64,000 nucleotides of DNA, from contig CAVZSQ010000022.1 in assembly GCA_963777955.1 (NCBI GenBank), forward strand, positions 32,001 through 96,000, written 5' to 3'. Within the stretch, counting starts at the first letter, position 1; the number at the start of each line of letters is the position of its first letter. The notes under the pieces are model-generated. The model was not told the DNA's origin and did no database searches. It was given only the letters and a program-made list of their open reading frames with translations. The DNA is from Calditrichia bacterium. GTDB taxonomy: Bacteria; Calditrichota; Calditrichia; JAJRVZ01. Of the stretch, positions 7,852 through 53,500 are shown one piece after another. Both the position numbers and the translations under genes were made by a program.

Positions 7852-9958
7852 GTGACCCACGGACACCTGCTCTCGCCCGGCTCGATCGGGCCCATGCCGC
7901 TGCGCAACCGCATCGTCATGCCGGCCATGGACCAGAACACCTGCGACGAGGGCGAGATCACCGACCTCACCGTGGCCCACTACGAGGCGCGGGCGAAGGG
8001 CGGCGTCGGGCTGCTCATCCTCGAGACCTCGGCCGTGGCCTGGCCGGTCGGCGCCACGTCGATCCACCAGCCGGCGCTCTCCGACGACCGGTTCGTGCCC
8101 GGGCTCGAGCGCCTGGGCCGGGCGGTGCACAAGCACGGGGCGAAGATGGTCGTGCAGGTCTGCCACCACGGCAAGACCGCCGGCGTCGACGCCATGCAGG
8201 ACCGCGACCAGCTCGTGCCCTCGATGCCGATGCCCCACGAGGACGTCGACATCAGCGCCCTCACCATGGACGAGCTGATGAAGATGGCCGCCCTCACCGG
8301 CGGCAAGCGGGCCACCCAGCGCGAGGCCACGGCCGACGACCTGGCGTGGGTCGTCGACCAGTTCGCCGACGCTGCCGCCCGGGTGCAGGCCGCCGGGCTC
8401 GACGGGGTCGAGGTGCACGCCGCCCACGGCTACCTCATCTCCACCTTCCTCTCGCCGCGCTTCAACACCCGCACCGACGAGTGGGGCGGATCGGTCGAGA
8501 ACCGGGCCCGGCTGATGACCGACGTGATCCGGGCCATCCGCACCCGCTGCGGCGACGGGTTCGCGGTGATCGTGCGCATCGACGGCCGCGAGTACGCCGA
8601 GGGCGGGGTCACCCCGGAGCTGGCCGCCGAGCACGCGGTGCTGGCCCAGGCCGCCGGCGCCCACGCCGTGCACGTGTCGGCCAGCGCGCCCAACGCCCTC
8701 GGCGTGGGCTTCACCGACGGTCCGCTGCCGTGGCAGGCCGACCAGTACGTCGGGCTGGCGGCGCTGCGTGAAGCAGTCGATCGCGGTGCCGGTGATCGGT
8801 GTCGGCCGGATCATGCCCGACGCCGCCGAGCGCCACATCGCCAACGGCGAGCTCGACTTCGTGTCGATGGGCCGCCAGCTGCTCGCCGACCCCGAGATCC
8901 CCTCGAAGCTGCTCGCCGGCCGGGCCGACCACGTCCGCACCTGCATCAACTGCTTCGTGTGCGTCGCCCAGAACTTCTGGGACGGCGCTCCGGTGTGCGC
9001 GGTCAACGCCGAGCTCGGCCACTACGACGAGGGCCCGATCGTGCCGGCCGAGGTGCGCCGCACCGTCGCCGTGGTCGGGGGTGGGCCCGGCGGCATGGAG
9101 GCGGCCCGTGTCGCGGCGCTCCGCGGCCACCGGGTCACCCTGTTCGAGAAGGGCACCGAGCTCGGTGGCACCGCCCGCTTCTCGTCGCTCACCACGCCGA
9201 TGAACGCCGAGCTGGTGCGCTACCTCACCAACTCGATCCAGGACCTCGACGTCGAGGTCCTCACCGGCACCGAGGCCACCCCCGACGCCGTGAAGGCCGT
9301 CGGGGCCGAGGCCGTCGTGGTCGCCACCGGCGCCCGCCGCGACCGGCCCGACGTGCCCGGTGCCGACCTGCCCCACGTGCTCTCCGGCGACGACCTGCGG
9401 GGCATGCTGACCGGCGACGACCCGTCGGCGCTGAAGCGCCTGTCGCTCTACCGGCGCACCGTGGTCGCCGTCGGCCGCCGCACCGGGATGATGTCGAGCA
9501 TGGACCGGGTCCGGGGCCTCTCGAAGCGCTGGATGCCCATCGGCAAGAAGGTCGTGGTGATCGGCGGCGGGCTCGTCGGGCTCGAGCTGGCCGAGTTCCT
9601 GGCCGAGCGGGGCCGCAAGGTCACCGTGCTGGAGGCCGGCGACAAGCTCGGGGTCGAGATGGCCCACCCCCGTCGGGCCCGCGCCCTGTTCGAGGCCCGG
9701 GCCCACGGCGTCGAGCTCGTCACCGGGGCCGAGGTCTCGATGATCACCGCCGACCGGGTCGAGTACCGGGTCGGCGACCGCTCGCTCGCCAGCGACGCCG
9801 ACGCCGTCGTCCTGGCCAGCGGTGTGCACGCCGACCGGAGCACCGCCGATCGCATGGAGGCGGCCGGGTTCGAGGTCCACGTGGTGGGAGACGCCGGCGA
9901 GGTCGGCTACATCCAGGGCGCCGTGCGCAGCGGCCATCTCGTCGGTCGGGCCCTCTAG
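7852..9958 (+). CDS. NADH:flavin oxidoreductase (OYE / 2,4-dienoyl-CoA reductase-like; frameshift near 8765)
   Basis: LRNRIVMPAM, EVHAAHGYLISTFLSPRFNTRTDEWGGS, CINCFVC, VGGGPGGMEAA. Confidence 0.9.
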
Positions 9959-9998: not shown

Positions 9999-10580
9999 AT
10001 GGTGCTGGGTGGTCTCCTCGGGGTGGTCGCGGGGATCCTCGCGGTCGGGGGGCTGGCCAAGCTCCGCGGACCGGAGGCCACCGTCCCCATGCTCCGGGCC
10101 CTGGGCCTGCCCGCCTCGCCGATGCTCGCCCGTGCCCTCGGGCTGGTCGAGGTCGGCGTCGGCGTCGCCGCCTTCCTCGTCGGCGGATGGGCCCTCGCCG
10201 CCGCGGTGGCCGTGCTGTTCGTGATCTTCACCGTCGCCGTGCTGCGCCTGCGCTCCGGTGGCGAGGCCGTGTCGTGCGGGTGCTTCGGTCGCTCCTCGGC
10301 CCCGCCCACGATGATCCACGCCGTCGTCGACGGTGTGGCGGCGCTGGTCGCCGTCGCCGCCGCGGTGGCCGACGCCCCCGGCTTCCTCTCGATGCGGCCC
10401 GACCTGCCCGCCGCCGGAGTGCCCCAGCTGGGGCTCACCGTGCTCGCGGTGTGGCTCGGCGTCGCCCTGCTCACCGTGCTGCCGGAGGCGCTCGTCGCCG
10501 CCCGCCGGGTCCCCGCCACCGAGGCGCAGCGCGCCGCTCGTGCCCTGCGCACCTTCAGCCTGGAGTCGCCGCTCCCATGA
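9999..10580 (+). CDS. MauE/DoxX-family membrane protein
   Basis: GLAKL...LGLVEV...SCGCFG signature in a hydrophobic protein; ATGA overlap with the next gene. Confidence 0.85.
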   Translation: MVLGGLLGVVAGILAVGGLAKLRGPEATVPMLRALGLPASPMLARALGLVEVGVGVAAFLVGGWALAAAVAVLFVIFTVAVLRLRSGGEAVSCGCFGRSSAPPTMIHAVVDGVAALVAVAAAVADAPGFLSMRPDLPAAGVPQLGLTVLAVWLGVALLTVLPEALVAARRVPATEAQRAARALRTFSLESPLP

Positions 10581-12777
10581 GCCCCTCTGCTCAGCTCGCC
10601 GACAAGGTCTCGGGCCTCCTCGGCAGCCGGTTCAGCCGCCGTGGGTTCTTCGCCCGCACGGCCGTCGTCGGCTCCGCCGTCGCCGCCAACCCGCTGACCT
10701 ACGCCCTGACCCCCACCGACGCCTACGCCGCGGTCTGCAGCTGCAGCGGCTCGAACTGCGAGTGCGGCTCGATGTGCTGCGACGGCTACACCGAGTTCTG
10801 CTGCACCCTCACGCGGCAACAACCAGTGCCCCCCGGGCGTCGCTGCTCGGTGGCTGGTGGAAGGTCGACGGCTCGGGCTTCTGCAACGGCCCCCGCTACT
10901 ACATGGACTGCAACGCCCCCTGCAACGGGTGCGGCTGCGGCGGCGGCGGCATCTGCAGCGGCGGCGCGCTCGGGCACCAACTGCGGCTGCGGCCTCGGCG
11001 ACTGCAACAACCGCAAGGCCGGCTGCGTGAACTTCCGCTACGGCCAGTGCAACCAGCAGGTCGTCCTGCATCGGCCCGATCCTCTGCCGGGTGGTCACCT
11101 GCATCGCCCCGTGGGAGATCGACGGCACCTGCACGACCACCGCCCGCTACGACGCCACCACCGCCGACCCACGACCGGCCCTGCCTGCACGGTCGATCGG
11201 CGACGTCGAACACCGCGGTGGAGGACCAGCCGTCAACGGCGGTCCCGCCATCGGGTCACCGGCTGGGCGCATCGACTTCGACACCAACGCCTCGATCGAC
11301 GTCCGCGTCTACGTCGACGGCAACTCGCCACCACGGCCACTCGCCAACCGGTGCCCGGTCCGACGTCGCCATCGCCAACCCGGGTCAGGGGCCCGAACCA
11401 CGGGTTCGACGTCACCGTCCCGATCACCTCGGGCGCCCACAACGTCTGCGTGTATGGCTCAACGCCGGCCCGGTCGGCAACGGCAACCCCGCCTCGGCTG
11501 CCGCGACGGTCACCAGGTCGGAGCGCCGTTCGGCAACCTCGAGGGCCTCGACCGTCGGCACGGGCCGATCACCGTCCGGGGCTGGGCCGCTCGACCCGGA
11601 CACCACCGGCCCGGTGAGCGTCCACGTCTACGTCGACGGCAACTGGGCACGGCCAGGGCGTCGCCGACCAGCCCCGCCCCGACGTCGGCCAGGCCTTCCC
11701 CGCCCTCGGCCCGAACCACGGCTTCACCGTCACCGTGCCCCTCGCGGCCGGCGCCCACAACGTGTGCGTCTACGCCATCAACGTGGGCAACGGATCGGTC
11801 AACACCCAGATCGGCTGCGTCACGGTCATCGGGGCAACCCGTTCGGCTCGCTCGACGTGGCCACCGCCACCGCGGGCGGTGTCGACGTCAGCGGCTGGGC
11901 GATCGACCCCGACCAGCTCACCAGCCCCATCGACGTCCAGCTGCGCCTCGACGGCAACCCGGTCAGCACCGTCGCCGCGGGCGAGTCCCGGCCCGACGTC
12001 GGCTCCGTCTACCCGACGGCAGGGGCGAACCACGGCTTCTCCCGATCGTCCCCGCCACAGCCGGTGTGCACACGATCTCGGCGGTGGCGCTCAACGTCGG
12101 GCCCGGCACCAACCAGGTGCTCGCCACCCGCAGCGTCGAGGTGCGCTCGCGGCAGCCCGTTCGGGAACCTCGAGCGCACCTGGACCGGCCCGGACACCGT
12201 CCGGGTCCCGGGCTGGGTCCTCGACCCCGACAACACCGGCCCCATCCAGGTGCAGGTCGACGTCGACGGCGTGGTCGCCACCACCGCCACCGCCGATGTG
12301 TCCCGGCCGCGACGTGGCCGCCGTGTACCCGGGCTACGGCCCCGTGCACGGCTTCCAGGTCGACGTGCCGGCCACCAACGGCCTGCGCCTCGTGCGGGTC
12401 GTGGCCCTCAACGTGGGCGCCGGCTCGCCGGTGGTGCTCGGCGTGCCGCAGCTGCAGGTGGGCGGCAACCCGTTCGGCAACTTCGAGGACGTCGTGGTCG
12501 CCTACGGCCGGGTCGCCGTCGCCGGCTGGGCCATCGACCCCGACACCTCCGATCCCATCGACGTCCACGTGTACATCGACGGCAGGCTGGCCCTCGTCGG
12601 CACCGCCAACCAGTCCCGTCCCGACGTGGCCGAGGCCTTCCCGCTGTACGGCCCGAACCACGGCTTCAGCATCTCGACCCCGATCGCCCGCGGCCGCCAC
12701 GAGGTCTGCGTTTCGCCATCGACCAGGGCCCGGGCACCGAGAACGTGCTGATCGGCTGCCGGACGGTGACCGCATGA
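10577..12777 (+). CDS. Tat-exported Cys-rich (MauA light-chain-like) protein with five C-terminal beta-rich repeats; many frameshifts
   Basis: SRRGFF Tat motif, AYA cleavage site, ~25 Cys in ~150 aa, then repeats GW(A/V)xDPD...VYVDG...RPDV...HGF spread over three frames. Confidence 0.75.
11190..12775 (+). repeat. Five tandem ~100-aa protein repeats (PFG..GWAIDPD..V.VDG..RPDV..GPNHGF)
   Basis: Units start at about 11190, 11525, 11835, 12155 and 12463. Confidence 0.8.
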
Positions 12778-13652
12778 CCGTCCTCGTCGTGCTGCTCGCC
12801 CTCGTGGTGGCGCTGCTCGCCGTGCTGGTCATCGGCCTGCTGCGCAGCCACGCCGAGATCCTGCGCCGGCTCCACGAGCTGGGCGCGGGGATCTACGACG
12901 ACGACGAGGGCACCACCGTCACGTCGCCGACGTCGACCACCGGTGGCGTGCGCTCGCCCGTCGAGCTGCGCACCCGGCCGGGCGTGCCCGAGCCCCGCAG
13001 CGCCGAGGGCCTGGTGGCCACCGACGCCCACGACATCGCCGGGGTGACCCCGACCGGCTCGGCCACCATGGCCGGGGTGGTGGGCACCGGGCACACGACC
13101 CTGCTGGCGTTCCTGTCGAGCGGCTGTGGCACCTGCGCCGACTTCTGGCGGGCGTTCGGCGACGGCGAGGGCACCCGCCTGCCGGGCCGCGACACCCGCC
13201 TGGTGATCGTCACCAAGGGCACCGAGGCCGAGAGCAGCTCGGCGGTCGCCCTGCTGGCCCCCGCCGGGGTCACCACGATCATGTCGACCGAGGCCTACGA
13301 CCAGTACTCGGTGCCGGCCAACCCGTACTTCATCCTCGTCGACGGGCCCACGGGCCGGGTGCTCGGCGAGGGGGCCGCCGCGTCCTGGAGCCAGGTCGCC
13401 ACCCTGCTCGGCCAGGCGGCCGCCGACGCCGGCCTCGCCCTCGACGGCTCGCCGCTCACCCGCTCGGCCCCGGCCGGGCGCATGTCCGGCCCCGATCGGG
13501 CGGCCCGCGCCGACGACGACCTCCTGGCCGCCGGCATCGGCCCCGGCCACCCGAGCCTCTACCCCGACCAGCTGGTGGGTGGCGACGACGCCGCCCTGCC
13601 ACAGACCGACCCCGTCCCCGGCGGCCCCGCCGACCCGGGCCGGGCGAGCTGA
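12774..13652 (+). CDS. MauD-like membrane-anchored thioredoxin-fold protein
   Basis: N-terminal TM then GLLRSHAEILRRL; LLAFLSSGCGTC (CxxC); YSVPANPYFILVD; ATGA overlap. Confidence 0.8.
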   Translation: MTVLVVLLALVVALLAVLVIGLLRSHAEILRRLHELGAGIYDDDEGTTVTSPTSTTGGVRSPVELRTRPGVPEPRSAEGLVATDAHDIAGVTPTGSATMAGVVGTGHTTLLAFLSSGCGTCADFWRAFGDGEGTRLPGRDTRLVIVTKGTEAESSSAVALLAPAGVTTIMSTEAYDQYSVPANPYFILVDGPTGRVLGEGAAASWSQVATLLGQAAADAGLALDGSPLTRSAPAGRMSGPDRAARADDDLLAAGIGPGHPSLYPDQLVGGDDAALPQTDPVPGGPADPGRAS

Positions 13653-13660
13653 GGACGACC

Positions 13661-14135
13661 ATGGCCACGCTTGAAGGCCCACGGGATCGGCGTCGCCCCG
13701 CCGGCCGGCTGGGACGCCCAGATCTACTCCCGCAGCGCCGATCCCCGGATCATGACGCCGCAGGGTGTCAGCGAGATCGTGCCGCCGATCGCCCACGTCG
13801 CCAACTTCGCCCTGCCGCCCGTCCGCGGCGACTTCGGCGGTGGCGCGGTGGAGCTGATGGAATCGGGCGCGGTGTTCATCGCGCTGCTCGAGCACGACGC
13901 CGCCGAGGCCGACACCGCGCTGTTCGTGGGCAAGAGCATCCCGTGGCCGCTGAAGGCCGACGACTTCGACCCCAACAACCTGCAGCGTGGCATCGGCGGG
14001 CAGGCCGGGTGCCAGCGGTTCTTCCTCGTGAACGGCCGGCCGTTCTGCCTCTACGTCGTGATCGGCAGCCACCGCCTCCGGCACGTGCTCGTCCGCGAGG
14101 TCAACGCCGCGCTGGCGGCCGTCACCTTCGACTGA
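13661..14135 (+). CDS. Hypothetical protein, last gene of the Mau-like cluster
   Basis: GAGGA RBS and ATG at 13661, main frame 13671..14135 (indel near start); HVANFALP...GDFGGGAVE...GCQRFF...RPFCLYVVIG. Confidence 0.7.
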
Positions 14136-14224: not shown

Positions 14225-16145
14225 ATGGGCACCTTCGACGAGGTCTACGACCGGAGCATCGCCGACCCGGAGGGGTTCTGGGGCGAGGCCGCCACGGCCA
14301 TCCACTGGGACACGACCGCCGGCCACGGTGCTCGACGCGAGCAACCCGCCCTTCTACCGGTGGTTCCCGGACGGCGAGCTCAACACCTGCTTCAACGCCC
14401 TCGACCGCGGTCGACGGCGGGACGGCGTCGACGAGCTGCGGGCGACCAGGCCGGCGCTGATCTACGACACCCCGGTCACCGGCACGGTGCACGACCTACA
14501 CCTACCGCGAGCTGCGCGACGAGTCGCCCGCTTCGCCGGCGCGCTGCGCGGCGCTCGGCGTCGGCAAGGGCGACCGCGTCGTCATCTACATGCCGATGGT
14601 GCCCGAGGCCGTCATCGCGATGCTGGCCTGCGCCCGGCTCGGCGCCGTGCACTCGGTGGTGTTCGGCGGCTTCGCCGCCCACGAGCTCGCCGTCCGCATC
14701 GACGACGCCCGGCCCACGGTCGTCGTCTCGGCGTCGCTGCGGCATCGAGGGCACGCAGGTCGTCGAGTACAAGCCGATGCTCGACCGGCGCCTCGACCTC
14801 GCCGAGCACGAGCCCGCCGAGCACTGCGTCATCCTGCAGCGCCCGCAGGTCGCGGCCACGCTGGTCGCGGGCCGCGACCTCGACTGGGCCGAGGCCGTGG
14901 CGGCCGCCGAGCCCGTCGACCCGTGCGTCCCGGTCGCGGCCACCGACCCGCTCTACGTGCTCTACACCTCGGGCACCACCGGCAAGCCCAAGGGCGTCGT
15001 CCGCGACAACGGCGGCCACGCCGTCGCGCTGCGCTGGACCATGCCGCAACATCTACGACATCGCAGCCCGGCGACGTGTTCTGGGCCGCCTCCGACGTCG
15101 GCTGGGTCGTCGGCCACTCCTACATCGTCTACGCGCCCGCTGCTGCTCGGGCGCGACGACCGTGCTCTACGAGGGCAAGCCGGTCGGCACGCCCGACGCC
15201 GGGCGCGTTCTGGCGGGTGGCCGCCGAGCACGGGGTGAAGGTGCTGTTCACCGCGCCGACCGCGTTCCGGGCGATCAAGAAGGAGGACCCCGAGGGCGCC
15301 CACCTCGCCGGCCACGACCTGTCGGCGCTGCAGACGCTGTTCCTGGCCGGCGAGCGACTCGACCCCGACACCTACCACTGGGCCGTCGACCAGCTCGGCA
15401 TCCCGGTGATCGACCACTGGTGGCAGACCGAGACCGGCTGGCCGATCGCCGCCAACCTGCATGGGCATCGAGCGCGCTGCCGGTCAAGCCGGGCTCGCCG
15501 ACCGTGCCGGTGCCCGGCTACGACGTGCGAGATCCTCGACGCGACGGGGCGCCGAGGTGCGAGCCGCGGCGACGAGGGCTCGATCGTGCATCAGGCTGCC
15601 GCTGCCGCCCGGCACGCTGCCGACGCTGTGGGGCGACGACGACCGCTACGTCGCGTCGTACCTGTCGACGCTTCGCCGGCTACTACCTCACCGGCGACGG
15701 CGGCTACGTCGACGACGACGGCTACCTGTTCGTGATGGGCCGCACCGACGACGTCATCAACGTCGCCGGGCACCGGCTGTCGACCGGGGCGATGGAGGCG
15801 GTGCTCGCCACCCATCCCGCCGTCGCCGAGTGCGCGGTGATCGGCGTCGCCGACGAGCTCAAGGGCCAGGTGCCGCGCGGGCTTCGTCGTGCTCAAGGCC
15901 GGCGTCGACGTCGAGCCGACGGGCTCGCAGGCCGAGCTGGTGCCGATGGTGCGCGACGAGATCGGCGCGGTGGCGTCGCTTCAAGCGGGTCGACGTCGTG
16001 GCCGCGCCTGCCGAAGACCCGCTCGGGCAAGATCCTGCGCAAGACCATGCGCGGCATCGCCGACGGCCGCGACGAGCCGGTGCCGTCGACCATCGAGGAC
16101 CCCGCCGTGCTCGACGAGATCGGCGACGCCCTCGGCCGCCCCTGA
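14225..16145 (+). CDS. prpE: Propionyl-/acetyl-CoA synthetase (many frameshifts)
   Basis: FYRWFPDGELNTCFNALDR, YTSGTTGKPKGVVRDNGGHAV, DHWWQTETGW, LPLPPG, LPKTRSGKILRK. Confidence 0.85.
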
Positions 16146-43915: not shown

Positions 43916-45038
43916 AGCTTCGCGCCGGTGGCCTCCGACCGGCGCCGGCGGCGCCACTCGTCGATGCGCAGGGCCATCGGGGTGGAGGGCGGGCCGTCGA
44001 CGAAGGGCCACAGCTCCTCGGCGATGCGCCGCCAGTTCCCGGTGGCCTCGAGCTCGCCGAAGATGGCGTAGAGCCCCAGGTTGATGCGCTGGATGATCAC
44101 GAAGCTCTGGGGGACGTTGGCCGCCTTCTGCATCGTGGCGTAGGGGCCCGACGTGTCGAAGAAGCGGCGCACGGTCTCCGCCGCGTACTCGTGGGTGATC
44201 GTGTAGGGCCCGTCGACGCGGACGAAGTCGTAGAAGTGGCCGAGGTAGTCGGCGACCTCGTCGTCGGTGACGGGCAGGCCGGCCGGCAGCAGCCCGATCC
44301 GCTCGACCGTGGCCCGGAACGCCGCCGGGTCGTGCTCGAGCACCATGTGCCGGATCATCTCGTCGAAGTCGTCGAGCTCGTCCTGGGTGAAGTGCTTCAC
44401 CAGGCCGAAGTCGAGGAAGGTGACCCGGCCGCCGGGGTGGAACAGGTAGTTGCCCGGGTGGGGGTCGCCGTTGAAGGCCCGCAGGCGGTAGAGGCTGCCG
44501 AAGGCGAAGCGGTAGAGGGTCTCGGCGGCCAGGTCCTTCTCGTCCTGGGGCCAGGTGAGCAGCTCGTCCCAGCGCACGCCGTCGGAGAGCTCGGTGGTGA
44601 GCACCCGGCGGGTCGAGAGGTCGGGCACCACCGCGGGCACGTGGATCGTGGGATGGCCGTCGTAGGCCTGGGCGAACACCTGCTGGTGGCGGGCCTCGGC
44701 GCGGTAGTCGAGCTCCTCGACCAGGCGCTCGCGCAGCTCGGCCACGAGCGACTTGGGGTCGAGGCCCGGGAACAGCTGGCCGAGCCCGCCGAAGAGCAGG
44801 CCGGCGTTGTCGAGGTCGGCGGCGACGGCCTCGGCGACCCCCGGGTACTGCACCTTCACCGCCACGGCCCGGCCGTCGTGGGTGATGGCCCGGTGGACCT
44901 GGCCGATCGACGCCGAGGCGATCGGCACGGGGTCCCACTCGGCGAAGACCTCGTCGGGCTCGCCGCCGAGCTCCTGGCGGATCACCCCGGCGGCCAGCTC
45001 GGCGCTCATCGGCGGGGCGTTGTGCTGGAGCTCGGCCA
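43912..45038 (-). CDS. ABC1/UbiB-family kinase, 5'-truncated at the junction
   Basis: ASASIGQVHRA, VAVKVQYPG, EELDY, DPHPGN, FLDFG. Confidence 0.9.
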
Positions 45039-45039
45039 C

Positions 45040-46326
45040 GCTACCACCGGCAATGATGTCTGGCTGATTAAAACCAATGCCTCCGGAGATACACTCTGGA
45101 CCAGAACGTTCGGTGAAATCGGTTCGGATGGCGGTTATTCGGTTCAACAGACCGCGGACGGAGGATTTATTGTAACCGGGTCAAAAAGCACATTCGATGG
45201 CAACGGCAGTTATGTCTGGCTGATTAAAACCGATGCCGCCGGAGATACACTCTGGACCAAAACGTTTTGGGGATATTATTCTGGTAATGCTGGTCAGGCG
45301 GTACAGCAGACTGAAGATGAGGGATATGTCATTTCCGGATATACGGAGGCCTGGGACTACAGTAATGGCGAGGTCTGGCTAATCAAGACCGATTCCTCCG
45401 GTGATACACTGTGGACGAAAACTTTCGGAGGAAGTCAGAGGGAGTACGGCAATTCAATCCGGCAGACTGAAGATGATGGGTACATAATAGCCGGCTCGAC
45501 ACATTCATTCGGCGCCGGCAACTCTGATCTCTGGCTGATTAAAACCGATGCCCTGGGCGATACACTCTGGACCAGGACATATGGTGGAAGCAGCGTAGAT
45601 AGAGCATATTACATCCAGCAGACTGCAGATGCAGGGTATATCATCACCGGCTCGACACATTCATTCGGCGCGGGAAACTATGATGTTTGGTTGATTAAGA
45701 CAAATGCCTCTGGTGATACACTCTGGACCAGGACGTACGGAGGAAGAGGTGAGGATTGCGGTAATGCAGTCCAGCAGACTGATGATAAAGGTTATATCTT
45801 AAGCGGCTATACCTCTTCATTCCCCGCCGGTATCAGGGATGCCTGGTTGATTAAGACCGATGACGCCTCCGGGGATATAATCTGGACGAAAACATTCGGG
45901 GGAGGTGATCATGATGCCGGTTACGACGTCCGGCAGACGCCGGATGGAGGATATATCATAGCCGGTTATACCTCTTCATACGGTAGTGGCGGCTCTGATG
46001 TCTGGCTGATTAAAACCACCTCTGATGTTAATCCAATTTATGAAGATAACATCGACAATACTTCAGATTATGATTTACACCAAAACTATCCCAACCCCTT
46101 TAATCCATCCACTACTATTGAATTTGATATTCACTCGTCCGGATTTGTTTCATTGAAAGTGTATAACATAGTGGGTCAAGAAGTTGCGATATTAGTTAAT
46201 AAAGAATTATCCCAAGGGAATCATAAAGTAGAATGGAAACCAGAAAATCTATCAAGTGGACTATACTTCTATAAAGTGGAGACAACAGGATATCAGGAAA
46301 CGAAGAAACTCATACTAATGAAATAA
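45040..46326 (+). CDS. Secreted repeat (probable beta-propeller) protein with T9SS-type C-terminal domain, 5'-truncated
   Basis: About 7 copies of DVWLIKTD..GDTLWT.T.GG...QQT.DGGYII.G; LHQNYPNPFNPSTTIEF...SGLYFY...KKLILMK. Confidence 0.88.
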   Translation, partial: ATTGNDVWLIKTNASGDTLWTRTFGEIGSDGGYSVQQTADGGFIVTGSKSTFDGNGSYVWLIKTDAAGDTLWTKTFWGYYSGNAGQAVQQTEDEGYVISGYTEAWDYSNGEVWLIKTDSSGDTLWTKTFGGSQREYGNSIRQTEDDGYIIAGSTHSFGAGNSDLWLIKTDALGDTLWTRTYGGSSVDRAYYIQQTADAGYIITGSTHSFGAGNYDVWLIKTNASGDTLWTRTYGGRGEDCGNAVQQTDDKGYILSGYTSSFPAGIRDAWLIKTDDASGDIIWTKTFGGGDHDAGYDVRQTPDGGYIIAGYTSSYGSGGSDVWLIKTTSDVNPIYEDNIDNTSDYDLHQNYPNPFNPSTTIEFDIHSSGFVSLKVYNIVGQEVAILVNKELSQGNHKVEWKPENLSSGLYFYKVETTGYQETKKLILMK

Positions 46327-46438
46327 AAAGTAATATCTATCTGACCTGTCTGCTGCCAGGCAGGCGCCGGCTGGCCCTGGTCAATAAAATCATCCAGGCC
46401 GAATTGTGGGAAAAATTAGTGGGAGATAGGGGTAAAGC

Positions 46439-46633
46439 ATTACACGGAGTTACACAAAGTAACACGGAGTTCCACAGAGAAAGAAAAATTCTGGTTTAGT
46501 AATAGGACTTCATTAATAAATGATTCAGTTTAAAAATCTTTAATATCCCATGCACGAATCATCAAATATTAATTACCAATCCTGATTAATTGCTCCGTGA
46601 AACTCCGTGCTCCTCAGTGGCTCTCCGTGTGAC
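46439..46633 (+). mobile_element. ~200-bp MITE/REPIN-like element, copy 1
   Basis: Terminal arrays of CACGGAG / CTCCGTG; core alignable to copies 2 and 3. Confidence 0.6.
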
Positions 46634-46667
46634 TATCTTCTTACTCGCTCTCCAATTTATTCAGCAT

Positions 46668-47741
46668 TCACGGCCTTGGATTTTTATGCTGTAAAAAGAA
46701 AACCTGCACATGGGCTTGATGCTGCGGACGCACCCACTCATCGCCATGATCTTTGTAAACCTGCATCTCCTTGACAAAAGCGAAGTCTTTCTCCAGTGAA
46801 AATTGATCCTGCACACTGTCGAGATCTTTCCCGTTTAAGGCAGCTTCTTTTGTGCCGTTCCACAGGTTCCTTATATATTCAAGGTGGGTAACTGCGCGTT
46901 CTCTCGTCCAGACATCACTCATATCGCAGATGACCCTTTCAACCGCATTTTTACCTTCCAGCAGCTCCTCAAGTATCGAGATCCAGCGTTCCACATCCAG
47001 TTCGGCATATTCATGGTAGGGATAAGGGGCCAGATGCTGGGCATGCAGAATAAAACCGGGTATAATTGCCAATTTCTCCTCCGGAATAACCACTACGGTC
47101 ATGCCGTTGTAATTTCCGGCCTTGCCAAACCAGATCAGTTTGAGCGTAAGATCACCCAGGTCAAGCGACATTCTATCGCTATAAACCAAGGTCGGTAAAA
47201 TCAGGGAAAAACCGGCCTCCAGCTCGTCGGCCCTGCGCTGGCAGGTCATGATCCACCGCTGCTCAATGCCGGCTTTATCCGAATCTTTTTCCAGAGTTTC
47301 CAGACGTTTACGTGCAGCATCGGCTTTCCGGCGCCACATGTCTGTAAGTTTCCTGATTTCCGCCTTAACTTCATCTTGCTTGCCCGTAAACTTATCCAAA
47401 AAACTGTCGTGACCGACGATACTGGTTTCTCCATAGGCTGCATTTCCGCCAAACATATCCAACCGATCCACCATGTTGATGGTATAGGCAAAATCATCCC
47501 GTTTGAAATATTTGACGATTTCTGCTTTATATTGCCGGGCGGTAATCTGGGACCAGAAGGTATCGAAAACAATCAGCCCCTTTTCTGAATTAATAACTAA
47601 TTGATCTTCTCCTCCTGCGGGATCATTCACAATGAATATTTTATCGGTAATGGCCCTGATCTGAAAGTCAGCGGCCAAAGCGAAATTGGAACCGATTATA
47701 TGCTGAATTATAAACAGTATAATCATAATTATTCTGTTCAT
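46668..47741 (-). CDS. Secreted MBL-fold-like protein lacking the metal-binding motif
   Basis: Signal peptide; SEKGLIVFDT, YTINMVDRLDMFGGN, PTLVYSDRMSLDLGDLTLKL, VVVIPEEK. Confidence 0.7.
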   Translation of the reverse strand: MNRIIMIILFIIQHIIGSNFALAADFQIRAITDKIFIVNDPAGGEDQLVINSEKGLIVFDTFWSQITARQYKAEIVKYFKRDDFAYTINMVDRLDMFGGNAAYGETSIVGHDSFLDKFTGKQDEVKAEIRKLTDMWRRKADAARKRLETLEKDSDKAGIEQRWIMTCQRRADELEAGFSLILPTLVYSDRMSLDLGDLTLKLIWFGKAGNYNGMTVVVIPEEKLAIIPGFILHAQHLAPYPYHEYAELDVERWISILEELLEGKNAVERVICDMSDVWTRERAVTHLEYIRNLWNGTKEAALNGKDLDSVQDQFSLEKDFAFVKEMQVYKDHGDEWVRPQHQAHVQVFFLQHKNPRP

Positions 47742-47882
47742 TGCTTGTCCCTCCCGGGTATTAGATAAATTTAAAATCAAGATCAATTCAACGTTTGTTC
47801 GTCTAACAGGTGTTATGTGCCTTAGATTACGGAAGGCGGGCGGAGAAAGTTTCAAATTCGTTTTGGGTGGTTGGGGGAAAGC

Positions 47883-48083
47883 ATCACACGGAGGGACACG
47901 GAGCAGGCACGGAGAAACACGGAGAAGATACTTATGGATTTGTAATTAATATTTTGATCAACAGTGCTTGGGAGTTTAGCATTCTTCATCCTAATCACTT
48001 ATTGACGAAGTCCTATCACCAAACCAGAAATATTTTTACTCCGCCGAAGGTCTCCGTGCTTGCTCCGTGTAACTCCGTGTAAC
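47883..48083 (-). mobile_element. ~200-bp MITE/REPIN-like element, copy 2 (inverted)
   Basis: Reverse complement matches copy 1, including TTCTGGTTTRGTRATAGGACTTC and TATTAATTAC.AATCC. Confidence 0.6.
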
Positions 48084-48171
48084 GCTTTTCCCTAACCTCC
48101 GGAAATTAATATTTCCCCTTTTTAGTTACTCAATTATATTATCATATGTAAACCAAAAAGGAGATTGTATC

Positions 48172-48687
48172 ATGTATAAATTAAGCATCCTGTTTTCAAT
48201 TCTATTCTTACTCCTCACGGTACCCCTGCTGGCCCAGGAGGAACCTGCCCAATCCATGACGCTCCCCCAGCCGCTTGACGACGCATTCCTTAAATGGATG
48301 GTCGGGGAGTGGAAGGGAACCACCAGTTCAAGCAACGGCATCACGGAAGATTATATGAACTGCGAAATGGAGATAGGTGGACAGTTCCTCTTCGCTACCT
48401 ACACGGCGAACTATGAAGGAAAACTGATGATGTCCGGCTTGGCTGTGCTGACCCTGGACAAGCAGGGTAACGATGTGAGCTACTGGATCGACTCCATGCG
48501 GGAGATGGGAACAGGCAAGGGCAGCCGGCAGGGGAATGTGTCGGTCGTGAAATGGCCCATGTACGGCGGGGAATACGTACGCACCACCGAAAAAGTCGAT
48601 GAAAATACCATGAAAGTCACCGGGGTGATGCTCATGCCCGACGGGAAGGAAATGAAATCGGAGACGTTGTTGAAAAGGATTAAGTAG
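48172..48687 (+). CDS. Secreted protein, DUF1579-like
   Basis: AGGAG RBS, signal peptide, WMVGEWKG...GGQFL...YWIDSM. Confidence 0.7.
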   Translation: MYKLSILFSILFLLLTVPLLAQEEPAQSMTLPQPLDDAFLKWMVGEWKGTTSSSNGITEDYMNCEMEIGGQFLFATYTANYEGKLMMSGLAVLTLDKQGNDVSYWIDSMREMGTGKGSRQGNVSVVKWPMYGGEYVRTTEKVDENTMKVTGVMLMPDGKEMKSETLLKRIK

Positions 48688-48695
48688 AGATTTAT

Positions 48696-48930
48696 ATTAC
48701 ACGGAGTTCCACGAAGACCTTCGGCACGGAGACCTTCGGCGGAGATTAAAATTTCTGGATTAGTGATTAGATTTCATTACTGAGTGATAAAATTCAAGTT
48801 TTACATATGAATTGATAACTGTAATGTAACTGGTAATTACTAATTACTAATTACCAATTACTAATTATTAATTCCTAATATTTACCTCCGCCGAAGGTCT
48901 CCGTGTTTACTCTGTGGAACTCTGTGTAAT
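48696..48930 (+). mobile_element. MITE/REPIN-like element, copy 3 (contains a heptamer array)
   Basis: ATTACACGGAG...CTCTGTGTAAT termini; GACCTTCGGCGGAG / CTCCGCCGAAGGTC arms. Confidence 0.6.
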
Positions 48931-48947
48931 TTTTTACCCTAAACCTC

Positions 48948-50481
48948 CTACTTCACCAATACCATCTTCCTCATCTGTACCCAATCATGCCCAACCTGCA
49001 ACCTGTAAAAATACACCCCGCTGGCCAGACCTGAGGCGTCAAATTGCACCATATGCTTACCAGCTGTCTGATTTCCGCTTACCAGTGTGGCCACTTCCTG
49101 TCCCAGTAGGTTATAGATTTTCAGAGTTGTTAAATTCAGGAATTTGGGAATTGTGGAATTGGAAGGTGGTGCTTGAATTAAAGGGATTGGGATAATTCTG
49201 ATTTAATTGGTATTTGGTTATTGGTGCTTGGTTATTCCCAACTTGGGTCGCGTAATCGCTTTCAAAAGCGCCGAGATCGGGTGCTGAACCTTTATATGGA
49301 TAGCCCAGATCCACACCGCCATCGATCAGATCGCTGCCCTCGTAGAGGTGCATGAAGGCGATCTCCGGTAAACTATTGCCGGCCTGGCGTGCGGTATCAG
49401 CCGACTCGCTGTCCAAACTCAGAAAATCACCGGCCGTGACTTCAAAAGGTGTAAGCCAGCTGTTAGTTTCCTGCACGGCAAAGGTTCCCAACTCGACATT
49501 GCCGTTATATGAAACACAATTTTTTACGGTCAGGGTCTGTCCGGGAACCAGCGCACGCTGAATTCTGTAATTGGACACCAGGTTGCCGTAACCGGTGCAA
49601 TTATATAAAGTCATTGATCCGAGATTGTTATTCTGATCGAATCCTTTACCTTTATTATTAAACGCCAGACAATTTATTAAAATAAAATGGTGCATCAGCG
49701 AATCGGCATTGCTGTTGTCGCCACCGCCCATCTTAAAGCCGTTACCGTTGGCCTGAATACCGGGATCCGAGCCGTCTTTCAGATAGCCGTTACCCCAGGT
49801 CCAGCAATTTTCCAGTGTGGTGGTTACGTCTGTAGCGCCGCGCATATAACCATCCCAACCATCGTCGCAATTGCCCCAGGCCCGGCAGCCGTAAAAATAG
49901 TTGCCGCTGCCGACGGTAAGCTTGGGCGCGAAACCGTCCGCATCCCCATAATCGGTCGGATCGGCATTATAGTAGGAATCGCAATTGATGATCCGGTTAT
50001 TGGCCGAACCGTTGCCCAACTGCAGCCCGCTGTCCCGGTTTTCGTAAAACTGGCAATTTTCGATAATATTATTGGAACCGAAGTCGATATTCATACCGTT
50101 ATCGCCGGCACCCTTGATCTGCAGTCCTTTAAAATGCCAGTAATTCGCTTTCAGAATGAAACCTCTTGAGCCGAACGCCTGTGCTGAAAAATCAAGAATA
50201 GGTACCTCGTCATTGTAGGCGGTCATGGTGAACATCAGCTCTAGAGTACCGCTTTTTACCGCGGTGATGGTTATGGTAGCAATCAGATTATATACACCGC
50301 CGCGGACATAAATCGTATCACCAGGTTGGGCAGCCGAAATTGCGGTGGGGAATGTGGCGTAGGCTGAATCTATGGTACCAGGATTGGTGTCCAGACCGTC
50401 AGGGGAAATGTATATTTGTGCATTGAGCAGAGTTGTGGTAATTAGTAAATAGTAATTAGTAATTATGAATTTTTTGAGCAT
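48948..50481 (-). CDS. PL9-family polysaccharide (pectate) lyase with T9SS-type C-terminal domain (frameshift near 49130)
   Basis: PGDTIYVRGG, GDADGFAPKL, WGNCDDGWD, NGNGFKMGG, APDLGAFE; CTD continues in another frame as IYNLLGQEV...RKMVLVK to TAG at 48948. Confidence 0.85.
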
Positions 50482-50498
50482 ACCAATTCCTTCTTCAT

Positions 50499-50561
50499 GA
50501 CCCTCCCCAGCCCCTCCCTTTCAGCCTCTGGGCTGAAAGGGAGGGGGTAGGGGGTGGGTTA
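50499..50561. repeat. GA-rich REP-like hairpin, copy A
   Basis: GACCCTCCCC.AGCCCCTCCCTTTCAGCC-loop-GGCTGAAAGGGAGGGG...GGGTGGGTTA. Confidence 0.75.
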
Positions 50562-53500
50562 TTTCATCAACACCAGTTTCTTTACCGACACAAAATCACC
50601 CGCCGGTGATGCGGTAATAATAAATTCCACTGGCGTAGCCGCGGGCATTCCAATGGATGATGTAAGCACCGATATTGTGCCTGGCGTTGACCAATTCAGC
50701 GACCTGGCGGCCCATTACATCATACACCACCACAGTAACATCACTTTGTTTCGGAATGTCGTAGCGGATGGTCGTCGCAGGATTGAACGGATTCGGGTAG
50801 TTCTGGTAAAGGGCGAATACTTTCGGTATCTCGGCGGACGGTTCGGTTTCCACCGAGCTGGGATCGATCAGTAAACTTCCGCCTTCATATGAAATCGAAC
50901 CATTCGGTCCCAGGGTGAAAGGAATCGTATTATCAAATACGCCTTGTTTCAGATGCAACACGCCGTTAATGGTCGTTTCCTGGGATAATTTTACACCGGA
51001 TGTATCGTCGATGCTCAAATCGTTGACAATCACCGGCATCAGCATACCGGTAACCTGCGGCACGCTGGCGTGAAATATGTAATTGGCGCCGCTGCTCAGG
51101 GAATCTTTCCCCGTATTTTGCAGGGTGCTGTCCAGACCGCCGGGATTAGCCGTGGCCAGCGTCGCGCCTTCGTTCAATATAAACAGGCCTGCGCCGCCCA
51201 GTCTGATTAGAACTAAAATCCAGTATTGTACCGGAAGCGACTTCCAGGGGCAATCCTCCTCCGCCGTAGGTCATATTGTGGAGGGAGATGGTCTGTACTG
51301 TATCGCTGTTAAACACAAACCAGGCATTTTTGGTATTCGAGTTTTGTGTGGCGGCATTTGCCAATGATAAATTCCCTTCATGCAGATACCAGCGGGTGGA
51401 GCCGGAACCTTCGCCCTGCGATCCGCGGCAGACAGAAAGGTTTCCACCGGTAGCGATAACGTCACCGTATTGATGTACAATAATGGTCGTAAGGGCATTG
51501 CTTGTTCCATTTGAAGTAAATTGACCGCTCTCAACGACCACATCTCCCATGATAGTGAGTTCGGCCGTATCGCTGGCAACGGCTGAGGTCATCTGCCATC
51601 TGTAAGCGCCGGTATTAATCACATTTATGTCGCCACCGATGGTAATACCATTCCAGCTCATGTCGCGGTTGCGTCCGAGATTAGGTGTGTTAAAGGTGAC
51701 ATTATAGAAATTCTGATTGCGGTTGCCCGGCGCATCCTGAGTCGTGCCGGTCAGCAGCAATGTGGAACTTTCGTTCCAGGTGCCGTTCGGAATTTCTCCG
51801 CCGTTCTGCGCATGTTCGTAAACCGAGCCCGCATCAAAATCCAGTGTGGCGACGGCACTGAGAACACCTTTATTGACAACAGTACCTGCGACATTCCCCC
51901 CGCTGGTAGTTATACTCCCTGCGCTATCGATCTGCATAACTGAACCTGCCTCCACTTCCAAATCCGTGCAGACAAGGGTGTCGTTAAAGGTGACTCCGGC
52001 CGTATTGATTATGGTCAGCGTGCCTATGGAATCGGTTATGGATACTCCGGATATCTGTGCTGCAGTTCCGTTGAACGTGAAATTAGCTGCCAGGTTTATT
52101 GAGTCTTTACCTGTATTTTGCAGGGTGCTGTCCAGTCCGGCAGGATTTGCCGTGATCAGGGTTGCATTCTGATTCAGTATGAACATGCCTTCACCGTATA
52201 AATTGTTCAGGCCAAAATCAAGTGACGAACCCGTGGCGACCTCGATGGGCAGACCTCCGCCGGCATAGGTTACATTGGAGAGTGTTATCATTTGTACGGA
52301 ATCTTTATCAAAAACAAATTTAGCATTACCGGGGGTGGGATTGGAATTCTGTGTTGTGGCATCGGACAAAGAGAGATTCCCGTTATGCAGGTACCAGGTG
52401 GTTGTACCTGAACCGCTGCCCTGTGTTCCCCGGGAGACGGATAGATTTCCACCGGTGGCGATCACGTCGCCATACTGATGGACAATAATCGTTGTATTGG
52501 CATTGCTTGTTCCGTTGGTAGTAAACTGGCCCGCTTCAACGATCACGTCACCCATAATGTTAAACTCGGCAGTATTGTTTGCCGAGGCGGAGGTCATTTG
52601 CCATCTGAATGCACCGGTATTCAAAACCGTAATATCACCACCGATAGTATTACCAGTCCAGCCCATGTCGCGGTTGCGTCCAAGATTGGGTGTGTTGAAG
52701 GTGACATTGTAAAAATTCTGGATCCGGTTCGCCGGTGCATCCTGCAGGGTACCGGTCAATAAAAAGGTCGATCCCGCTTCCCAGATAGTCTGTCGGTATG
52801 CTACCCGCATCGCGGGCATGATCGTAAACCGAACCATTGGCAAAGGTCAATACGCCCATCGGATCAACGGCGCCGTGGTTGACCAGCAGGCCGTTGACAG
52901 TGAGATCTGTAGTTATTTGCATGACAGCAGTATCGGCAACTTCGAAATGGATTCCGCCTCCGCCGTAGGTTACATTATCGAAACTGACTTTCTGGGTGTC
53001 TTTCTTAGCAAAGACAAACTTTGCATTTCCTGCAGTCGGATTAGAGTTCTGTATGGTGGAATTGGCCAGGGACAAATTCCCGTTGTACAGAAACCAGGCG
53101 GTTGTACCCGAACCGCTTCCCTGCGAACCTCTGGCCAGGGAGAAGTTGCCACCGTTAACATCGATGTCGCCGTAGTGATTAACAATAAAAGTCGTATTGG
53201 CATTACTTGTTCCCTGTACGGCCAGGGCGCCGGATTCGACAATCACATTGACCCATTATGGTAAATTCAGCAGTATTGTTAGCCGAAGCCGAGGATAATT
53301 GCCATCTGTATGCTCCGGTACTGATTACCCTGATATCACCACCGACGGTATTTCCGTTCCAGCCCATATCGCGGTTGCGTCCAAGGTTTGGAGTATTGAA
53401 GGTAACATGATAAAAATCCTGGTTCCGGTTACCCGGAGCATCCTGCACAGTACCGGTCAAAAGCAGGGTTGATCCCTCGCTCCAGGTGGCTACGGGAAGG

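Follow-up and report, generated by a model that had tools for sequence, protein, structure and literature searches.

The closest described relative of the locus analyzed here is the mau cluster of Paracoccus denitrificans (mauF-B-E-D-A-C-J-G, NC_008688), whose methylamine dehydrogenase (MADH) carries a tryptophan tryptophylquinone (TTQ) cofactor. According to the parts of the papers covered here, the initial hydroxylation of Trp in MADH is believed to proceed autocatalytically, with involvement of a nearby Asp (PMC7876137), and MauG works on a Trp that is already hydroxylated (PMC11951088). Parts of the system are also described in other settings: the covered text of one report presents MauE as a generalist DsbB-like CxC oxidase (bioRxiv 10.64898/2026.03.05.709764), and that of another presents candidate clusters for ribosomally synthesized and posttranslationally modified peptides (RiPPs) in Streptomyces in which mauE (and mauD) lies next to the gene for a Cys-rich precursor and other mau genes are lacking (PMC7794033). 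Here, we analyzed a 64,000-nucleotide stretch of contig CAVZSQ010000022.1 (the window), from an assembly assigned to a Calditrichia bacterium and referred to as G000. It contains a cassette of four mau-like or associated genes, which we call E, A, D, and X:

9999..10580, + strand: E, MauE-family membrane protein, 193 aa (Pfam PF07291), with the CxC motif C-G-C-F-G at 10275-10289
10577..10726, + strand: leader of A, 50 aa, twin-arginine type (SRRGFF ... AYA), with a MauA-like n-region by hhalign to MauA leaders
10727..11190, + strand: core of A, 153 aa with 26 Cys, with the frame restored across five 1-base insertions; the invariant Trp is encoded at 10858 and the Asp at 10906
11191..12777, + strand: tail of A, five Ig-like repeats of about 105 aa, frameshifted in the window and swapped or missing in relatives
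12774..13652, + strand: D, MauD-like, N-terminally anchored thioredoxin-like protein, 292 aa, with CGTC at 13125-13136
13661..14135, + strand: X, 157 aa, no signal peptide, Mog1/PsbP-like fold, with a frameshift near 13670, about 10 nt after the ATG

The four genes are tightly linked. E (9999-10580) overlaps A (10577-12777), and A overlaps D (12774-13652), through ATGA junctions at 10577 and 12774, respectively, and an 8-nt gap separates D from the ATG of X at 13661. A first-pass annotation made from the sequence alone had described this same arrangement, and its coordinates and junctions hold. GTDB contains at least 585 stretches matching the cassette; the locus statistics reported here are for the best 80 of these. 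E, A, D, and X occurred together in 62 of the 80 loci, in the order EADX in 57, DXEA in 3, and ADXE in 2, which makes it a conserved actinobacterial cassette. Several of the remaining 18 loci lie at contig edges. The cassette can also split: in four loci (L009, L027, L066, and L072), none of the other genes accompanies A within 10 kb on either side, and X was found elsewhere in the genome in the five genomes tested (those four and L064, the latter from the unpublished genome G581). No other neighbor was recurrent, every other cluster occurring in at most 11 of the 80 loci, and a MauE query gave no match against plasmids. In an even sample of 251 genomes of the class Acidimicrobiia, A was present in 89, X in 88, both in 87, and either in 90; without the unpublished genome G207, the counts are 88, 87, and 86 of 250 for A, X, and both. 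At the level of the phylum, X was found in 26 of 301 genomes, including the unpublished G383 and G533.

E is MauE-like, as the first-pass annotation had proposed from its SCGCFG motif. It matched Pfam MauE (PF07291) with an E value of 2e-15 and a score of 57.6 bits (cutoff, 27 bits), and a hidden Markov model (HMM) built from E sequences of the loci matched P. denitrificans MauE (E = 9e-17). CGCFG is kept in 63 of the 65 loci with a strong E match. By analogy with MauE, E is probably a DsbB-like disulfide generator. The corresponding HMM for D matched Paracoccus MauD (E = 6e-12), and a CxxC motif was present in D of all 66 loci scored. D had no Pfam match, and its score against the MauD equivalog model TIGR02661 was 20.1 bits, under the cutoff of 188.6 bits. 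Judged by these profiles, the earlier description of D as a MauD-like CxxC thioredoxin stands as a likeness and does not extend to orthology with MauD as TIGR02661 defines it. The charge around the anchor of D (a mean of 2.3 K/R versus 2.0 D/E after the helix) is too weakly biased to indicate topology. Past the thioredoxin-like domain, D carries a C-terminal motif (RaD.eL.aAGi.PgdpsLy-like, window 13430-13580) that is conserved in the loci inspected and is not present in Paracoccus MauD.

A fifth gene, which we call F, emerged from the loci. An exact motif search found this MauF-like membrane protein in 49 of the 80 loci, and an F-family HMM matched Paracoccus MauF with an E value of 2e-27 over 200 columns that include the motif W-S-P-C-G. 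The counts for F include two loci from unpublished genomes, L076 (G282) and L019 (G287), which are also among the 80; L019 supplied the F query. All of E, A, D, F, and X were present in each of 20 further loci picked by X from the phylum-level search. F has no second conserved Cys, and the codon at its single conserved Cys, in W-S-P-C-G, is TGA in 35 of the 49 loci and TGC or TGT in the other 14; the same position is TGA in 18 of these additional 20 loci. An open frame of at least 175 codons continues past the UGA in 33 of the 35 genes. SelA, the component of the selenocysteine (Sec) machinery that was checked, was found in 34 of 35 genomes with UGA-type F (fragmented in 2) versus 2 of 14 with Cys-type F, plus 1 Cys-type genome below the cutoff; without G282 and G287, the counts are 33 of 34 and 2 of 13. 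A 6-bp hairpin starting 9 nt past the UGA is present in 35 of 35 UGA genes and 0 of 14 Cys genes, this motif having been defined post hoc from these sequences and being confounded with coding and descent. The Ser codon in the hairpin is always AGC in UGA-type F, and the adjacent Ser is TCN. A second hairpin lies 27 to 42 nt after the UGA (e.g., at L074:12201), has a 3-nt loop starting with G, and occurs in most UGA genes and some Cys genes. Either hairpin may be a SelB-binding loop. In L054 (G005) and L045 (G151), the distance between selA and the UGA-type cassette is about 7 kb or less.

On these sequence grounds, F is a fifth member of the cassette, MauF-like and often a putative selenoprotein, and E, D, and F are homologous to MauE, MauD, and MauF and travel with A and X. 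Since Sec would occupy the one conserved Cys of a MauF-like protein, we argue for redox chemistry in F, which we take to resemble CcdA/DsbD. F had no match in NCBIfam. In the five genomes most closely related to the window, F is of the Cys type and lies elsewhere in the genome, unlinked to the cassette, and tblastn with F gave no match in G000, in which about 77 kb of the host of the cassette is covered.

Intact A proteins in relatives have about 730 aa, comprising the 50-aa leader, the 153-aa domain with 26 Cys, and five repeats of about 105 aa. The leader has an S-R-R-x-F-L motif, an h-region, and an AxA site, with R21 and R22 invariant in 50 of 50 sequences, and 25 of the 26 core Cys codons are intact in the window compared with the intact relative L001. 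These features agree with the earlier prediction of a protein of the twin-arginine translocation (Tat) type with about 25 Cys. In relatives, the tail is replaced by SLH, CWB2, FG-GAP, DUF4214, or LGFP domains or is absent, and 9 of the 20 distant loci encode the core alone; because such anchor-less forms exist, we consider the core to be the working unit. In L108 to L112 and L115, the twin-arginine consensus of an anchor-less A is degenerate or absent, although the other four genes (E, D, F of the TGA type, and X) are all kept. Such distant forms may not be exported through Tat, or the leader may serve recognition.

The AlphaFold2 (AF2) model of the A core has a predicted local distance difference test score (pLDDT) of 89.5. 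Among 214 aligned A domains, all but one contain 16 to 28 Cys, and the count is even in 193. W94 is invariant (214/214), D110 is kept in 213, and the many near-invariant non-Cys polar residues include R106, D110, R153, R170, and T194; H197 is kept in 196. Searches of Pfam, NCBIfam, and PDB sequences placed the core in no family, and the ESM Atlas returned nothing usable for A.

Several lines of evidence make it likely that the A core is a remote homologue, by descent, of the amine dehydrogenase light chain MauA. A leaders aligned with MauA leaders in hhalign (P = 97%, E = 3e-11), and a profile of the A n-region, upstream of the RR, scored above 3 bits in 92 of 115 MauA leaders and in 1 of 12 unrelated Tat-like leaders; these controls were few and unverified, and one A-family leader had been taken out of them. 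Light chains of MADH and aromatic amine dehydrogenase (AADH) held Foldseek ranks 1, 2, 4, and 10 for the A core model, a light chain ranked first of 48,161 in a VIA-wide structure search, and the only 4 of 187 chains tested with a Z score of at least 2 were MADH/AADH light chains. By eye, 10 of the 12 Cys of MauA can be matched in order in A, and the two share a similar order of Cys, CPPG motif, Trp, and YxDC. Forced, low-confidence profile alignments placed W94 on Trp57 and FRYGQ on YRPE; the pairing of YMDC of A (D110) with YRDC of MauA (Asp76) was made by eye and not by the profile alignments. The homology gains further support because three neighbors of A are also Mau homologues.

Other results weigh against this homology. 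The light-chain matches (PDB 3c75, 3orv, 1mda, and 2agy), although the best found, are weak, with Z scores of 2.2 to 2.5, root mean square deviations of 3.2 to 4.5, 67 to 75 residues aligned, template modeling (TM) scores of 0.23 to 0.30, and Foldseek E values of at least 0.84. In mature-domain comparisons, hhalign gave P = 9.5% for A and MauA (score, 23.2; 1 of 60 shuffles scored higher), and P = 7.3% (0 of 100 shuffles higher) and P = 1.2% with distant A sets, so that the distant anchor-less forms (P = 1.2%) provided no bridge to MauA. Pfam MauA (PF02975) matched 0 of 50 A proteins and, in a search that detected the Paracoccus plasmid control, 0 of 35 genomes, and the MauA HMM does not score A domains. 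A is further set apart from the light chains by insertions that bring additional Cys pairs, by an extension at the C terminus, and by the lack of a cross-link partner for TTQ: a Trp at any of positions 150 to 168 occurs in only 6 of the 214 domains. Because A has no equivalent of Trp108, TTQ itself is excluded. The earlier view of the client as a different surface protein is right in that A is not a standard MauA, but A is probably a remote MauA homologue rather than an unrelated client.

X had been listed as a 155-aa protein with no assigned role. The gene is real, but it encodes 157 aa from the ATG at 13661; the 154-aa open reading frame (ORF) from the TTG at 13671 is the tail of X and is 96% identical to the intact protein P0001. 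No signal peptide was seen in an alignment of 119 copies or in the 20 distant copies. The AF2 model of X (pLDDT, 89.6) shows a Mog1/PsbP-like arrangement, with VIA matches to Tsi3 (the best, Z = 6.6, root mean square deviation of 3.6 over 107 residues), BT_1490 (Z = 6.2), and PsbP (Z = 5.4). X thus resembles proteins of the Mog1/PsbP/DcrB fold (Tsi3, BT_1490, MTC28, LpqN, and PsbP; Z = 5.4 to 6.6 over 105 to 115 residues) and differs from them in having no sequence family match in Pfam, NCBIfam, or PDB-sequence searches and no signal or lipoprotein peptide. With Z below 8, the likeness is one of fold and implies no function. ESM Atlas matches of X were unnamed clusters, mostly actinobacterial. 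X was also considered as a relative of MauB and rejected (profile comparison, P = 0.2%).

Modeling suggests that X is probably a binding partner of the A core. An ESMFold2 model of the A-X complex scored 0.81, and the best of three controls scored 0.29; in calibration, 116 of 157 solved complexes and 2 of 215 mismatched pairs came up to the score mark used, proportions only roughly valid for the alignments made here. The modeled interface on A comprises G70, W94, D97, F152, R153, G155, Q156, and D191. In MauA, the YRPE region lies on the side of the heavy chain. Some results tell against the model: the three runs scored 0.81, 0.87, and 0.01 and share at least 0% of contacts (partner pLDDT of at least 79), and the interface residues are no more conserved than others (P = 0.33 for A and 0.61 for X). 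The model supports binding and does not demonstrate it.

The DNA that carries the cassette is not that of the organism to which the assembly is assigned. In 4-kb bins, the GC content is 72 to 77% up to about position 45,000 of the window and 48 to 52% from there on, and it is 41 to 47% across the remainder of G000. The break lies outside the cassette and gives its context:

44950..45150 (G000:C22), no strand: chimeric junction, marked by the GC step and by ORFs cut there

The window is therefore a chimeric contig in which a high-GC actinobacterial (Acidimicrobiia) piece is fused mid-gene to a genome of about 45% GC, and the cassette comes from a host closely related to G001, whose genome is of the Acidimicrobiia type. 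About 77 kb of high-GC actinobacterial DNA (70 to 77% GC) in this contig is all that the assembly holds of that host. Contig C15 of G000 is also high in GC at one end (345 to 355 kb). Flanking the cassette, 7852-9958 encodes an NADH:flavin oxidoreductase and 14226-16145 an acyl-CoA synthetase; both are frameshifted and are neighbors at the lineage level only. On the low-GC side, 44191-52843 encodes several large secreted proteins with YPNPFNP-type C termini, which we take to be sorting domains; one appears pectate-lyase-like by eye.

Because the window is chimeric, the absence of mauB and mauG from it or from G000 is uninformative about the true host, and because only about 77 kb of that host is present, absence was assessed in the genomes of relatives. 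MauB (PF06433) was found in 0 of 84 genomes positive for A, most of them incomplete (control on the Paracoccus plasmid, E = 2e-212; 9 of the 89 class positives were not included). The MauG family (PF03150) gave weak matches in 2 of 79 genomes (E of about 2e-4, with fewer than 80 of 149 positions per match; control, 1.7e-43). G003, which consists of one chromosome record, contains A but lacks both mauB and mauG. These results agree with the first-pass annotation of a Mau-like cassette with no heavy chain or MauG. That annotation had also proposed a dedicated export and disulfide-folding system in an actinobacterium; a conserved actinobacterial disulfide-folding cassette is indeed present, but it holds no dedicated export gene, and A would take the general Tat route.

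How might such a cassette work? Using its CxC motif and the quinone pool, E would oxidize D, which in turn would insert 8 to 14 disulfides into the A core, and F, with its single Cys or Sec, would act on the reducing or isomerizing side. We regard this relay from E through D to A, with F on the reducing or isomerizing side, as very likely. X would then cover the face of the folded core that bears W94 and the FRYGQ segment, replacing the MauB heavy chain; lacking its own signal, X would exit through Tat while bound to A, or would escort A. This placement of X in the position of the heavy chain, with export bound to A, is fairly probable from the model. The tail of A would tether the A-X pair to the wall. 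Finally, W94, aided by D110, would be oxygenated without MauG, as has been proposed for Trp57 and its Asp in pre-MADH. The product would be a redox site, either hydroxy-Trp or an un-crosslinked quinone, that acts on an extracellular substrate, most plausibly an amine. An oxygenated W94 is our leading guess because the cassette keeps the MauG-independent components, but the chances that it yields such a redox site fall slightly short of even. The same holds for the chain as a whole, a five-gene Mau-derived assembly line leading to a MauA-like, non-TTQ surface protein with X as a new partner, which we put at a little under an even chance. A point against this chain is that 6 of 20 distant A leaders have no clear Tat consensus. 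More tentatively still, A-X might represent a new class of wall-tethered tryptophylquinone-type enzymes with a MauA-derived catalytic chain that is free of MauG and Trp108, a PsbP-fold cap, and a Sec MauF.

Close behind an oxygenated W94 comes the possibility that A is a noncatalytic, disulfide-locked binding or adhesion domain, with a structural role for the Trp and Asp and with X acting in the cytoplasm as a chaperone or escort that lets go of A before export or in the course of it; this is a credible minority view. Much of what counts against oxygenation fits it: W93, next to W94, is equally invariant (213/214), so both may be structural; D69, the equivalent of Asp32, is present in just 154 of 214 domains and Trp108 is absent; and no oxidizing maturase or electron acceptor is linked to the cassette. 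The fusion of A to wall-binding repeats, the absence of a signal peptide in X, the few polar residues of X that are invariant in distant members, and its fold neighbors, mostly binding or immunity proteins, point the same way. A purely structural A sits less easily with the many non-Cys polar residues that are near-invariant over 214 diverged domains, with the retention of all four helpers by anchor-less A, and with a complex model that places X on the folded mature domain. It is rather improbable that A is instead a surface metal (copper) chelator or a thiol-disulfide redox buffer recharged by D, E, and F. The Cys content of the domain, the conserved H197, and the redox chemistry to which Sec in F points would suit such a role, but the even Cys counts and the confident compact fold suggest structural disulfides, and none of the 35 neighbor clusters scanned was a recurrent metal-resistance family, except for a P-type ATPase that occurs in 4 loci and is restricted to one lineage.

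An ordinary TTQ amine dehydrogenase with mauB and mauG elsewhere in the genome would account for the homology of E, D, F, and probably A to Mau proteins, and the true host genome is unavailable, most hosts being incomplete metagenome-assembled genomes. The searches for MauB, MauG, and Pfam MauA, the rarity of a Trp in the Trp108-equivalent stretch, and the gene content of G003 all run counter to it, largely refute it, and make it the least probable of the explanations. For the window copy alone, and not for the system, decay into a pseudogene cluster or an assembly artifact could also be suspected, since A has many frameshifts, X has one, and the contig is chimeric. Compared with L001, A carries five 1-base insertions in its first 609 nt. 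However, gap openings are spread throughout the 14.8-kb block shared with L001 (159 openings at 88% identity), beyond the cassette, and the extra base is missing at 10812, 10840, 11063, and 11165, four of the five A-core insertions, in short-read contigs of related strains; intact relatives are 94 to 95% identical across the query pieces. Because the indels are block-wide and four of five insertions are missing from these contigs, the frameshifts in A and X look like sequencing errors, and decay or artifact is very improbable.

Set beside the P. denitrificans cluster, the cassette shares homologues of MauE, MauD, and MauF and a disulfide-rich client of the Tat type whose leader is MauA-like and which has putative equivalents of Trp57 and Asp76. 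It differs in having no MauB, MauG, amicyanin, MauJ, or Trp108, in a client with 16 to 28 Cys rather than 12 and with wall anchors, in the addition of the PsbP-fold X, and in the frequent putative use of selenocysteine by F. E resembles the generalist MauE in its CxC-F-G motif and in occurring without Pfam MauA, but in the cassette it goes with a single client and three further helpers; the terms "actino" and "MauF" do not occur in the covered text of that report (bioRxiv 10.64898/2026.03.05.709764). The Streptomyces RiPP clusters, as far as covered, have short peptide precursors in place of the 150-aa anchored domain with the MauF-like protein and X. A MauF-like entry is absent from the 119-family selenoprotein Table 1 of a 2026 review (PMC13188914, covered in part), and "Mau" is absent from the main text, without supplements, of PMC13326102. 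We found no description of the cassette or of a Sec-containing MauF in the literature covered, which extended neither to subscription papers nor to the supplementary family list of BSepDB.

The system is common, occurring in about one-third of the sampled Acidimicrobiia-class genomes (89 of 251), and its A, X, and F proteins match no curated family. Because what it retains of the mau pathway is the part that does not depend on MauG, the cassette allows direct testing of how oxygen is first introduced at Trp57 and of the role of MauF. If A-X is a tryptophylquinone-type enzyme of the class suggested above, the cassette would amount to a naturally occurring "pre-MADH" in which the initial, MauG-independent step of TTQ formation and the role of MauF are separated from the rest of the pathway. 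If A is noncatalytic, the cassette would still represent an undescribed disulfide-folding pathway with a new putative selenoprotein family. The system points to an undescribed cell-surface redox protein in many uncultured actinobacteria.

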